From Dictyostelium discoideum (lineage: Eukaryota), in the NCBI GenBank assembly GCA_000004695.1, contig CM000151.3, forward strand, positions 4,896,001-4,960,000: a stretch of DNA of 64,000 nucleotides. Direction: 5' to 3'. Under the pieces are notes generated by a model. The model worked only from the letters and a program-made list of their open reading frames with translations. It did not search any database and was not told where the DNA came from. Of this stretch, positions 20,421 through 35,317 are shown in pieces (within the stretch, counting starts at the first letter, position 1; every line of letters begins with the position of its first letter). Position numbers and translations under genes: made by a program.

Positions 20421-21131
20421 ATGTCGACAACAATTTATTTCTCATATCCAACTTATTCAAATGAAAGAGAATTCACCACATATGATGATGATAGTGAAGA
20501 AGAGTATTATGATCAATCCTATTTCCAAGATTATTCATTTCAAAATAAACCACAACCATCATCATCCAATATAAATAAATCTAAATCAGTTAAAGTTACT
20601 GGATATGGTAATGGTAGTAAAAATGCAGGCCAAGCCATTCCAAGAACTGATAAAGATTATAAAGCTGCAATTGAATATAAAAAAGAAAAGAAATTAGCAA
20701 TTAAACAAATAAAAGAAAATAAATTATCAACTTCACCAACAACAATAACAACAACAACAACAACAAATACTGCAACTAGTTATGAAAATGTAAACATAGA
20801 ATCACCAAATGATGAAAATAATAAAACAAAGAAATTAACAAAATTAGAAGTAAAATCAATCATTGAAAAAGAAACTGACCTAAAGAAAAAAGAAAGATTA
20901 CCATCAAGTATTGAAGTTTATAATAGAATTTTACATGATGAACAATTAAAAGATAAAATTCAAGATTTCATAATTACCTATGAAGATCGTTTCGATGGTT
21001 TATGTGATTCCGAGTTATTAAAATTAGACGAAGCCATTCCATTCCATAGAATTAGACAAATTAGATATTTAAATCAAATTGTATGGTCACGTTCTGAAAG
21101 ATTTTACGATTTCTCAAATTTATTGGATTAA
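20421..21131 (+). CDS. Hypothetical acidic/Ser-Thr-rich protein (236 aa), paralog of 34622..35317
   Basis: Single ORF MSTTIYFSYPTYSNEREFTTYDDDSEEE... The C-terminal 100 aa (KKLTKLEVKSIIEKETDLKKKERLPSSIEVYNRILHDEQLKDKIQDFIITYEDRFDGLC..LLKLDEAIPFHRIRQIRYLNQIVWSRSERFYDFSNLLD) is nearly identical to the minus-strand ORF at 34622..35317. Confidence 0.6.
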   Translation: MSTTIYFSYPTYSNEREFTTYDDDSEEEYYDQSYFQDYSFQNKPQPSSSNINKSKSVKVTGYGNGSKNAGQAIPRTDKDYKAAIEYKKEKKLAIKQIKENKLSTSPTTITTTTTTNTATSYENVNIESPNDENNKTKKLTKLEVKSIIEKETDLKKKERLPSSIEVYNRILHDEQLKDKIQDFIITYEDRFDGLCDSELLKLDEAIPFHRIRQIRYLNQIVWSRSERFYDFSNLLD

Positions 21132-21454
21132 AAAAAAAAAACACAAAAAGAAAATGTTTACTCAACATGTTTTTGGGTTCAAAAGTGTCAAAAGTTGGCA
21201 ATTGATTTTTGTATTGAAAAAAAAAAAAGTTGGTGTGTAATTAGCGAAAAATACTGGTGAAAATCTTCCAAAAAACCGAAATTGGTTAATTTTTTATTTT
21301 TTTTCCTGACCAATAAATATCTTTTTTTTATTTTTTTTTTTATCCTTTGCAAAGATTTAATTTTCTTATAAGGTTTTTTTTTTATTTTTTTTTATTTTAT
21401 TTTTTTTATTTTATTTTATTTTATTTTTTTTTATTTATTAATTTAAATTTATCT

Positions 21455-22399
21455 TTATGGTTTGAGTGCAGGTTGTTGTGTGACACCAAGAGCGTTAGTT
21501 GTCATAAGAATACCGACAATAACAGCGTAAAGACCTAAGGCACCAGCGAAAATTTCAATAATAAGCATTTTAACAAAAAGTGATGGATTTTGAGCGTCAC
21601 CCAATGCACAACCACTACCAGCAATACCTACGCAAACACTTTTTTTTTTTAAAAAATAATAAAAAAATTTGAGTGTTAGTTTTGATATATAAAAAAAAAA
21701 AAAAAAAAGTTTATTAAAAACTAAAAAACAATAATAATTACCCTGAAAAAACATTACAAAGACCAACAGTGATACCGGCACCAAACATCATGTAACCGGC
21801 CATATAATCGGAAGCTGGATCCCAAATATTTAAAAATTTATCGATTTTACCCTATAAAAATTAAAAAATATATAAAGGTTAGTAACTCTCTAGATATTTG
21901 TAATATTCGTTGTAAAAGTAGTGAATAATTTTCTATTATCATTGTTCTTATTTTTGTTGCTATTATTATTTTATTTATTATTATTATTATTATCATAATC
22001 ATCATCATCATCATAGTCATAATCATAACTATTATTCATTATCATCCATTATGTTGAATTATCTTTGCTATAGCGTGGTTTATATAACTCCACTTTACTA
22101 TCATCACGATCAATACTGTTGTTGTTGTTGTTGTTGTTGTTGTGTTCTTGTTGTTGTGTTCTTGTTGTTTTAAATTCTCTAAATACATAATTAAATCTAT
22201 GACTGTTTTAAACATACATTTAAAATAATAGCTAAAATAATACCATAAATAGCTACAGCTTCACAGAAAATAATACTAATAATATTTTTTGAACGAATTC
22301 TTGGTTCTTTAACGGCAGCACCCATAAGTGATGATGCAGTGACCCAAATACCCCTATTAATTGTGTAAAGTTAGTATTGATTACTTATTTATTTATTTA

Positions 22400-22466
<67 letters not shown>

Positions 22467-22582
22467 ATTATTAATGATTATTATTTTATTAGGTCCAAAC
22501 ATACCAAGCTGAACCAACAACTGATAAGGCTAATGAAAGGCCAATACCTGCATAAAAAAAAAATAGTTAGAAATAGTTTTGG

Positions 22583-22618
<36 letters not shown>

Positions 22619-22802
22619 CTTATTAAAAAATAAATGAAATAACGAAATTCATAAGTAAAAAAAAAAAAAAAATAAAAAAAATATATAAATAATACGTACC
22701 AAGTGCAGCCCATGTTGATGGGGATATAGTTACAAGGAAATAAGTACATTGATCATAATAGTTATTATCTGGAATTGGAGTAAGTGGATTAATATCAGGC
22801 AT
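21455..22802 (-). CDS. V-type ATPase V0 21 kDa proteolipid subunit c'' (ATP6V0B/Vma16 homolog); complement(join(22700..22802,22505..22547,22218..22353,21742..21851,21455..21638)), 191 aa
   Basis: The joined product is [177 protein letters not shown]... It aligns along its whole length with human ATP6V0B (..[123 protein letters not shown]). Donors are gtacgt, gtatgt, gtatgt and gtaatt. All phases were checked. Confidence 0.85.
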
Positions 22803-23443
22803 TTTTAATATATATATATAAATAAACACACAAAATTTTATGTACAAAAAAAGTTTTATGAAAAAAAAAAATTAAAAAAAAAAAATTAAAAAAAAAAAAA
22901 AAAAACAAATTTTCGCTTCAAAAAATTAAAAAAAAAAAAAAAAAAAAAAAGTTGAAGCACATATAAAATTTTTTTTACCAGGGCTTTATTTATTATTTTT
23001 ATTTTTATTTTTATTTTTAATTTTTTTTTTTTTCTGATACTAAAAGATTAATTAAACAAAAGAGCACTTTTTTTTGGGAACCTGTGACAATGATTTTTCT
23101 GGGGGGTGGTTTGTAATATATTTATACTATTATAATATATTAAAGTTGACTTAACCACTTTTCCAATAATTTATTTATTCATTCATTATTTAAATAATAT
23201 AATTAATTTTTACTAATATATATATATTTTTTATTTTTTTTTTATTTTTTTCAGGCTATTCATAGGAAAATAAAATAAAAACAAATCATCTCTTTCAATA
23301 TTTATGAATATAATTTTAAAAAGTTCAAATTAAAAGCAATCAGAAACTTGGCACCAACTCAAATTTTTTAATAAATTAAAATAAATAATATAATAATCAC
23401 GCCCAAAATAACTTTAAAATTTGGTTTTATTTTTATTTTATTA

Positions 23444-33415: not shown

Positions 33416-33589
33416 TTAAAAACAATAGCAAGGTTTAACAAAGAATAATGATTTTGCATATAAGTCTGTTGAACTAATTTCATTTTGTTTAAAGTTTAAT
33501 CCATTTTCATTTGTATTGGTATTTATTTTGTTAACCAAGTTTAATGGTTTTGAATTAATGATTTGACTAATTGATTCTATAAAATTTGG

Positions 33590-33623
<34 letters not shown>

Positions 33624-33704
33624 ATGGGTTTTATTAGTAATTGTTTTGGGTATGGTGATTACAATGATTAAGATCTTTGGAAGAAAATACATACTGAATA
33701 ACAT
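33416..33704 (-). CDS. Small split-gene peptide family member E (56 aa, variant C-terminus); complement(join(33695..33704,33416..33576))
   Basis: ATGTTATTCA|gtatgt...ttatag|. Product: MLFKSISQIINSKPLNLVNKINTNTNENGLNFKQNEISSTDLYAKSLFFVKPCYCF. Confidence 0.5.
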
Positions 33705-34403
33705 TTTATTTGGTTTTTTATTTTTATTTTTATTTTCAAAGTTTTTTAAATAAATAATTGTTTTTTGTTTTTATAAATGATTGGAAAAAAAAAAAAAAAA
33801 ATCCTATTTATATTAATTTTAAAAAAAAAAAAAGAATAAAATAAATCGTTTTTTTTTTTTCCAAAAAAATAATGATTTAACTAGTTCGATTTAGGGTTGT
33901 TTGTGGGTTATAAAATATTTTTTAATATTAAAAAAAAAAAAAAAATAAAAAAAAATAAAAGATCAGATAAATTGAGATGGTGTGGAAGTGAGAGAATAAT
34001 AATTATCAAGTATAATAACAAAATTGTTGATGTAATTTATATTCTATTATTTTCAAAGATCTTTGTACACCATAAACCAAAATGAGAATACCTTTAAAAG
34101 ATTCTTTTAAGAATTTGCTTTTTTTTTATTTTATTACTGAAAAAAAAAAAAAAAAAAAAAAAAACGTTCTTTTTTTTTTTTTTTTTTTTTGTTTTTTTTT
34201 TTTTTTGTTAAATAATAATAAAAATTGTTCAATATGATTTAATATTAAAAGATAACTTGTGGAAATAAAATTTATAAAAATAAAAAGAATAATTTTAATA
34301 TTAAAAAAAAAAAAAAAAAAGAGGGACAAATCAAAAATTTTATTATTAAAAAAAAAAAATAAAAAATGGAAAACCCATCTTTTTTTAACTTTTTATTATT
34401 CTA

Positions 34404-34443
<40 letters not shown>

Positions 34444-34621
34444 AAGGAACAGCTTTTTAAAAAAAATAATAATATATATTATATTATTATTTATAAAATA
34501 ACAACAATATTAAAGTTGTTTTAAAAAGATAAAAAAAAAAAAAAAGATAAAAAAAAAATAAATTTTTTTTTTTTTTTTTTTTTCCAGTTTCCAAATTTAA
34601 AATAATTTTTTTTTTTTTTTT

Positions 34622-35317
34622 TTAACCTAATAAACTTGAGAAATCATAAAATCTTTCAGAACGTGACCATACAATTTGATTTAAATGTCTAAATTGTCTA
34701 ATTCTATGGAATGGAATGGCTTCATCTAATTTTAATAACTCGACATCACATAAACCATCGAAACGATCTTCATAGGTAATGATAAAATCTTGAATTTTAT
34801 CTTTTAATTGTTCATCATGTAAAATTCTATTATAAACTTCAATACTTGATGGTAATCTTTCTTTTTTCTTTACATCAGTTTCTTTTTCAATAATTGATTT
34901 TACTTCTAATTTTGTTAATTTCTTTGTTTTATTATTATTTTCATCTGATAATTCATCATTTGATTCAGACTCTGATGGTGATTCTATAGCAGTAGTAGTG
35001 GTTGTAGTTGTTGGTGAAGTTGATAATTTATTTTCTTTTAATTGTTTAATTGCTAATTTCTTTGCTTTTTTATATTCAATTGCAGCTTTATAATCTTTAT
35101 CAGTTCTTGGAATTACTTGACCAGTTTTACAACTTGTATGACCAGAATTTAATTTATTTAAATTATTATTTAATTGATTAGTTTGTAATGAATAATCTTT
35201 ACCATCAATATATGTTTGATCATAATCATAATCTTCATCTTCACTGTCATTATCATAGGTAGTGAATTCTCTTTCATTTGAATAAGTTGGATATGAGAAA
35301 TAAATTGTTGTCGACAT
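34622..35317 (-). CDS. Hypothetical acidic/Ser-Thr-rich protein (231 aa), inverted paralog of 20421..21131
   Basis: Single ORF MSTTIYFSYPTYSNEREFTTYDNDSEDEDYDYDQTY.. with a C-terminal block (..KKLTKLEVKSIIEKETDVKKKERLPSSIEVYNRILHDEQLKDKIQDFIITYEDRFDGLCDVELLKLDEAIPFHRIRQFRHLNQIVWSRSERFYDFSSLLG) nearly identical to the + strand copy. It lies inside the small-gene array. Confidence 0.6.
   Translation of the reverse strand: MSTTIYFSYPTYSNEREFTTYDNDSEDEDYDYDQTYIDGKDYSLQTNQLNNNLNKLNSGHTSCKTGQVIPRTDKDYKAAIEYKKAKKLAIKQLKENKLSTSPTTTTTTTAIESPSESESNDELSDENNNKTKKLTKLEVKSIIEKETDVKKKERLPSSIEVYNRILHDEQLKDKIQDFIITYEDRFDGLCDVELLKLDEAIPFHRIRQFRHLNQIVWSRSERFYDFSSLLG

Follow-up and report, generated by a model that had tools for sequence, protein, structure and literature searches.

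The stretch analysed here, called the window, is a segment of 64,000 nucleotides (nt) from Dictyostelium discoideum AX4 (contig CM000151.3, positions 4,896,001 to 4,960,000). It carries two paralogs, A and B, that encode proteins with a C-terminal MJ1316 domain (Pfam PF04457) and lie on opposite strands. Comparison with the corresponding loci of related dictyostelids indicates that A and B are very probably an old gene pair in which interlocus gene conversion has recurred in short tracts bounded by linkers. The domain appears young (94–97% identical, with a synonymous divergence, dS, of about 0.1) though the duplication is old. The features of the pair are as follows.

20421..21131, + strand: copy A (DDB_G0274143), intronless open reading frame (ORF), 236 residues, PF04457 score 39.5 bits
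34622..35317, − strand: copy B (DDB_G0275133), intronless ORF, 231 residues, PF04457 score 38.8 bits
20343..20420, + strand: leader of A, homologous to the leader of B (DNA alignment)
35318..35395, − strand: leader of B, homologous to the leader of A (DNA alignment)
20826..21050, + strand: main homogenised tract in A, coding sequence (CDS) nt 406–630, MJ1316 domain; about 34700–34927 in B
20487..20639, + strand: linker 1 of A, CDS nt 67–219, paralog-specific and never homogenised according to the quartet sites
21060..21062, + strand: codon 214 of A, ATT (Ile), TTT (Phe) in B, a fixed A/B difference within the homogenised domain

The identity of A and B as genes of D. discoideum AX4 chromosome 2 was established by exact protein matches. 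The window is very AT-rich, and the two genes are convergent. An earlier reading of the letters alone, the sequence-only reading, had singled out the two inverted ORFs and described a common N-terminus and a C-terminal 100 residues about 95% identical; ORF calls and BLASTP bear this out. The proteins are 75% identical (E = 8e-110), their first 22 residues are the same, and their last 100 differ at six positions (94% identity). Both consist of an N-terminal motif, a disordered linker, a basic helix, a second linker and the MJ1316 domain. They are annotated only as hypothetical MJ1316-domain proteins, and neither identifier was found in any paper in the literature searches. No third copy was detected in the window by tblastn.

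The DNA homology of the pair is contained in one alignment of 815 bp with 85.9% identity (20343–21149 versus 35395–34606), which extends from about 78 bp before the CDS, through the whole of it, into about 18 bp of poly-A past the stop codon. The longest exact identity in AX4 is 88 nt (20881–20968). Beyond this match, the dot-plot of the flanks yielded low-complexity A/T runs only, and a larger duplicated segment was rejected for that reason. The duplicated unit is the gene alone. The absence of flank similarity beyond leader, gene and poly-A, together with the presence of separate A-type and B-type genes in other species (below), is essentially the outcome that the sequence-only reading had named beforehand as pointing to old paralogs. 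The proximal 45 nt or so before the ATG ('...ACATATAAATAAAATCATG') are kept in A and B alike in every species, the unlinked D. firmibasis copy included. This segment is best regarded as a leader or promoter element under constraint, which may have been converted too, and not as the remnant of a larger duplication. An origin of the duplicate by retroposition would be compatible with the extent of the homology, which stops at the leader and, behind the stop codon, at an immediately adjoining poly-A run. Introns, however, are absent from every member of the family, poly-A runs occur throughout the genome, and a target-site duplication would be unrecognisable at the age of the pair.

The age of the duplication was approached through orthologs and gene order. 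In a homology search, several D. discoideum-group assemblies, D. citrinum, D. dimigraforme and D. firmibasis each yielded two full-length homologs. The search also recovered a more distantly related third paralog (C) and, from D. purpureum, one gene. The genes are intronless in all loci examined. The protein alignment shows paralog signatures common across species: '...DYSFQNK...SKSVKVPGYGNGSKNAGQAIPRT' for the A type, and '...YIDGKDYSLQTN...NKLNSGHTSCKTGQVIPRT' for the B type. Distinct orthologs of both types are thus present in the four species D. discoideum, D. citrinum, D. dimigraforme and D. firmibasis, and the duplication is older than their split. The arrangement of the pair in the genomes compared is given below.

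AX4: A–B spacing 13.5 kb, convergent
FIR: A–B spacing 15.2 kb, convergent, colinear with AX4
FIZ: A–B spacing 15.4 kb, convergent, colinear with AX4
D. citrinum: A–B spacing 14.4 kb, convergent, colinear with AX4
D. dimigraforme: A–B spacing 31.4 kb, convergent, colinear with AX4
D. firmibasis: A and B on different chromosomes, B type in the usual B context, A type elsewhere

In all five genomes with a linked pair, a cNMP-binding/lactamase gene and two further genes lie upstream of A, and FKBP and CDP-OH-P-transferase genes lie upstream of B. The order following A is also the same in the five: a proteolipid gene (−), a second proteolipid gene (+), cyclin C (+) and a gene for 351–373 residues (−). 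The A-type gene of D. firmibasis (the X copy) is on another chromosome and has no flanking gene in common with the window. Likewise, no flanking gene is common to the D. purpureum locus and either D. firmibasis locus, or to the paralog C locus and the D. purpureum or X copy locus. The linked convergent layout may be the ancestral one, with a later relocation of A in D. firmibasis, or a derived one.

FIR is labelled D. discoideum and FIZ D. cf. discoideum. The A and B CDS of FIR differ from those of AX4 at 2–4% of nucleotides, and the A proteins of FIR and FIZ are 88% identical to that of AX4 (BLASTP), linker indels being part of the difference. Strains of one species would be expected to differ less, which points to cryptic lineages or to linkers that evolve very fast.

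Protein trees of the two halves are discordant, with grouping by paralog for the N-terminal half but by species for the C-terminal domain. To locate the signal, a codon alignment of 10–12 CDS was used, and informative sites were typed in four-sequence sets consisting of A and B from two genomes. Class O sites (orthology) group A with A and B with B, class C sites (concerted) group A with B within each genome, and class X sites follow the third pattern. The counts per block span five between-species pairs (AX4 or FIZ versus D. citrinum and D. dimigraforme, and D. citrinum versus D. dimigraforme).

CDS nt 1–66, N-terminal motif: O 0, C 0–4, X 0
CDS nt 67–219, linker 1: O 22–27, C 0, X 0–1
CDS nt 220–330, central basic helix: O 0–1, C 0–3, X 0–1
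CDS nt 331–405, linker 2: O and C mixed, block poorly alignable
CDS nt 406–630, MJ1316 part: O 0–1, C 8–14, X 0–1

The contrast between nt 1–400 and nt 401–711 is significant, with Fisher test p values of 1e-5 to 4e-8. Each species pair has 9–15 class C and 0–1 class X sites in the 3′ region. Bootstrapped DNA trees agree with the site counts. With the 5′ 400 nt, the B clade is recovered at 100% and the A clade at 76%, with no species clade. With nt 401–630, there is no paralog clade, and A pairs with B in D. discoideum (85%), D. citrinum (98%) and D. dimigraforme (72%).

Synonymous positions take part in the homogenisation: they make up 3–9 of the 9–15 concerted 3′ sites in four of the five species pairs typed, these four being between linked genomes. 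The 3′ dS between A and B of one genome is 0.065–0.15 in the D. discoideum group and D. citrinum, versus 0.22–0.32 between orthologs; in the 5′ part, the A–B dS reaches 0.36–0.47. The 3′ p-distance in D. discoideum and D. citrinum is likewise 3.2–5.2% within a genome versus 5.5–7.8% between orthologs. The ratio of non-synonymous (dN) to synonymous divergence, omega, is about 0.1–0.2 in the MJ1316 domain of both paralog lineages, and both paralogs are therefore considered functional. The C-terminal identity of about 95% would thus reflect gene conversion on top of purifying selection. The transfer appears non-reciprocal, as the derived states are common to both copies and not swapped.

The 3′ divergence of A and B varies with their linkage. 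It is 3.2–5.2% at spacings of 13.5–15.4 kb, 7.8% at 31.4 kb in D. dimigraforme, and 14.0% in D. firmibasis, where the genes are unlinked and the bootstrap for pairing A with B is 7%. The 3′ A–B dS of D. firmibasis (0.39) is about that of its orthologs to AX4 (0.31–0.44). From these few sites, homogenisation in D. firmibasis would have ended around the loss of linkage. Variants among D. discoideum strains, compared for three or four of them, are suggestive of conversion. Residues 174–175 read EQ in both A and B of AX4, EK in both of FIW and GK in both of FIR, and nt 250 (Ile/Leu) co-varies between A and B across strains.

It is proposed that both copies are retained under purifying selection and that the linked convergent copies, 14–31 kb apart, repeatedly exchange short stretches of sequence in a non-reciprocal manner. 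The tracts would fall in three conserved blocks, namely the N-terminal motif with the leader, the central basic helix and the MJ1316 domain, the last being the chief converted block with about 225–300 bp. Tract ends would coincide with the two indel-rich, low-complexity linkers, which remain paralog-specific. It is presumed that linker heterology halts heteroduplex extension, leaving short independent tracts, and that the exchange occurs during break repair with the paralog as template.

Several points weigh against conversion as proposed. The support consists entirely of comparative patterns. Informative sites are modest in number, about 10–15 per comparison, and the species comparisons are non-independent; the linkage trend comes from six genomes of four or five lineages. 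Part of the similarity of the domain is due to strong purifying selection, whose effect at non-synonymous positions is not fully separable from that of conversion. D. dimigraforme is borderline, with a 3′ p-distance of 7.8% within the genome versus 6.8–12.7% to orthologs and a 3′ dS of 0.36 versus 0.27–0.57; as this dS is not clearly below that of orthologs, conversion in this species is older or rarer. The GK state of FIR is also found in the X copy of D. firmibasis, so that ancestral polymorphism or recurrence could account for part of the strain signal.

One position of the domain escapes homogenisation. Codon 214 is Ile in 9/9 A-type and Phe in 7/7 B-type proteins from six genomes. All comparisons class its first nucleotide (nt 640) as an orthology site, and the codon adjoins the invariant P-x-HRI motif. 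D. citrinum has concerted sites on both sides of the codon. Its resistance may reflect selection for a functional difference, or a habitual tract end. A further account gives selection the shaping role: the two domains would be kept co-evolving, for instance because both may read the same RNA end or act together, and codon 214 would be actively protected, marking a functional split between two readers of RNA ends that are damaged or processed. We consider this account unlikely as a whole. If it were true, the unlinked D. firmibasis pair would be a natural experiment, in which the domains are diverging (14%, dN 0.11 versus 0.02–0.03).

Purifying selection without any conversion would have constrained the same blocks and produced the species-shared variants by parallel substitution. 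The low omega in the domain (about 0.1–0.2) and the match of the conserved blocks with structured or motif regions are in its favour. It is nevertheless rejected as the sole cause because synonymous sites are homogenised: the within-genome dS of 0.07–0.15 stands against 0.22–0.32 for orthologs. Moreover, concerted sites in the 3′ region of three species pairs exceed class X sites, a pattern equally 'parallel', by about 36 to 2, and the D. firmibasis pair is 14% divergent under the same constraint. Selection alone is thus very improbable.

The same excess of class C over class X sites indicates that neither parallel mutation nor reciprocal swapping is the main cause. Repeated crossovers between the inverted copies would turn the 13.5-kb block around and trade the 3′ ends of A and B, giving a mosaic. 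Inverted repeats are indeed a substrate for inversion, a crossover in the 3′ homology would leave both ORFs intact, and conversion and crossover have common intermediates. But swapping does not homogenise, the class X sites that it predicts number 0–1, and the longest perfect identity is just 88 nt. In addition, no inverted A–B block was found in AX4, FIR, FIZ, D. citrinum or D. dimigraforme, the block having one orientation relative to both outer flanks in all five. Reciprocal exchange therefore has an even smaller chance of being the explanation. The suggestion of the sequence-only reading that the pair is a substrate for rearrangement holds insofar as the copies appear to recombine, given the evidence for gene conversion; inversion of the block was not seen in the five assemblies.

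Least credible of all is a recent local inverted duplication, as first supposed, in which similarity means youth and an array of small genes (described below) grew around the pair: in its favour are a 349-nt stretch of the 3′ half with 94% DNA identity, the identical N-termini and the homology reaching about 78 bp upstream, but four species have distinct A-type and B-type orthologs, linker 1 has 22–27 orthology sites and zero concerted ones, the flanks share only the leader kept in all copies and species, the place of B in the array is kept across species, D. firmibasis has both types on different chromosomes, and convergent A and B linkers across species are implausible for more than 20 sites.

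The interval bracketed by A and B, and the DNA beyond B, contain the following features in AX4.

21455..22800, − strand: multi-exon gene of the ATP-synt_C (V-ATPase proteolipid) type (Pfam; orthologs)
24227..25065, + strand: second ATP-synt_C proteolipid gene (Pfam, 6e-30)
25634..26585, + strand: cyclin C gene (Cyclin_N in orthologs; cyclin C matches)
26788..27936, − strand: gene for 351–373 residues with T/P-rich and Cys-rich regions (orthologs called; no Pfam match)
28423..33625, − strand: six visible array members between this block and B, second exons ending at 28423, 28863, 30006, 31229, 32353 and 33416
36274..38439, − strand: three array members beyond B, second exons ending at 36274, 37432 and 38272
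28706–28805: gap of 100 N in the AX4 assembly

The contents listed by the sequence-only reading were therefore right for the proteolipid genes, cyclin C and the gap. Its 'saposin-like' label, attached to the Cys-rich ORF 27427–27936 (−), gained no support from Pfam, with no saposin match even at E ≤ 10. It had also counted eight small genes, five of them between the copies. Nine are visible; B has six of them on the side of A and three on the other, which agrees with the earlier placing of B inside the array. The array genes all lie on the strand of copy B and have two exons, with products of about 57–61 residues; the gene at 36551..36274 (−), for example, has a first exon of 10 nt and an intron at 36541–36450. 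The short first exon (MLF..) is followed by 'ESLNQ...FTRPQMY(S/N)F' or '...FFVKPCYCF'. No Pfam family was found for the products in Pfam scans.

FIR, FIZ and D. citrinum have ten array members each, in a 3 + 7 layout with one-to-one C-terminal signatures. D. firmibasis has 3 + at least 6 in the DNA examined, and the order is kept one-to-one from D. discoideum to D. firmibasis. The AX4 gap replaces about 1.9–2.1 kb present in two other D. discoideum-group assemblies (L009, 16352–18275; L011, 16241–18388), and the DNA opposite the gap carries a tenth member ('...GTNKYYNSIFTRPQMYNF'). The AX4 reference thus probably lacks one array gene, hidden in the gap. Because the 3 + 7 layout is kept across species, the array, with the place of B in it, predates the splits of D. 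discoideum, D. citrinum and D. firmibasis. The idea that it expanded around or after the duplication does not hold in any recent sense, the layout being one-to-one across strains and D. citrinum.

In D. dimigraforme, the 10 kb examined beyond B in the 31-kb A–B interval hold a 203-residue gene and a gene of at least 3840 residues, the latter without a recorded Pfam match (L002, 14628–20711). A single array member was found in these 10 kb. In AX4, a 94-nt direct repeat (39877–39970 and 43466–43559) is 90% identical, and each of its copies has a match in the FKBP exon at the locus of D. dimigraforme (L002, 5799–5944). It may represent a second FKBP-type gene or exon copy and would be a further candidate for conversion. 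In the gene upstream of A, the final exon (18328–19224, +) encodes about 150 residues of poly-Asn/Gln; on the opposite strand of this exon (18730–19176, −) lies a long poly-Ile ORF.

The PF04457 match spans profile positions 6–75 of 75 and corresponds to the C-terminal 75 residues or so of A and B. Precomputed assignments place the family on all 20 homologs from the homology search. An AlphaFold (AF2) model built on 21 homologs has a disordered N-terminal half, a long basic helix of low confidence (residues 77–99) and a confident α/β domain (residues ~140–236), with a predicted local distance difference test score of about 90. The domain has no match among solved structures: the best E value with Foldseek against the PDB was about 1, and phmmer against the PDB recovered no solved family member, only a spurious repeat match. 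The top matches of the PDB sequence search, designer pentatricopeptide repeat proteins (E about 1e-16), are an artefact that sums ten sub-threshold repeat matches; they were rejected because they follow from a chance 'TYxxxDGLC..LDEA' string, no stretch passing by itself. The MJ1316 domain is a predicted reader of RNA 2′,3′-cyclic-phosphate ends (PMC6514570), and A and B are accordingly predicted to bind RNA ends. Like other MJ1316-domain proteins, they score above the gathering cutoff of the family (26.3 bits) and have the P-x-HRI motif, which is invariant in 21/21 dictyostelid homologs. Unlike those with partners, they are stand-alone: in place of a catalytic partner domain they have a basic helix, disordered linkers and, at the N-terminus, a motif specific to dictyostelids (FSYPTYS).

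The pair appears young yet is older than several species splits, and whole-gene identity can thus mislead dating, ortholog calls and the inference of selection in dictyostelids. A and B are better analysed block by block. They offer a small, well-bounded case of proximity-dependent, segment-restricted conversion in an amoebozoan, with the unlinked D. firmibasis genes as a natural control. As uncharacterised, stand-alone carriers of the MJ1316 domain, their products are also candidate RNA-end recognition proteins in an organism amenable to genetics. As far as the literature searches reached, no description of conversion was found for this pair or for Dictyostelium paralogs.

In large palindromes, such as those of the human Y chromosome, arm-to-arm conversion keeps inverted repeats similar within a chromosome. 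The arms of such palindromes are nearly identical over a great length and have short spacers between them, whereas the A/B repeat is about 0.8 kb, mosaic, and separated by a gene-filled spacer of 13.5 kb. The old gene pairs BMP8A/B, DDX19A/B and TUBG1/2 display segment-restricted concerted evolution (Carson and Scherer 2009, PMC2720389). As with these, two paralogs are found per species examined, the duplication is older than the speciations, and homogenisation persists in several lineages. A and B differ from them in being convergent, inverted and 14–31 kb apart in an amoebozoan, in being intronless, so that synonymous sites replace the intron as the neutral control, and in having tract boundaries that coincide with low-complexity linkers. 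Gene conversion between inverted neighbours is described in Caenorhabditis elegans for the hsp16 inverted repeat and for hsp70-7/hsp70-8. There, conversion of close paralogs is independent of orientation, rarer with distance and rare between chromosomes, and the short tracts measure tens to a few hundred bp (reviewed in PMC3966223). The A/B pair resembles these in converting despite inverted orientation, less so with distance (an effect seen in six genomes only), and in short tracts. The C. elegans pairs are adjacent, hundreds of bp apart, whereas seven or more unrelated genes lie between A and B. Segment-restricted gene conversion is thus a known process, of which the A/B pair is a new example rather than a new element or mechanism.

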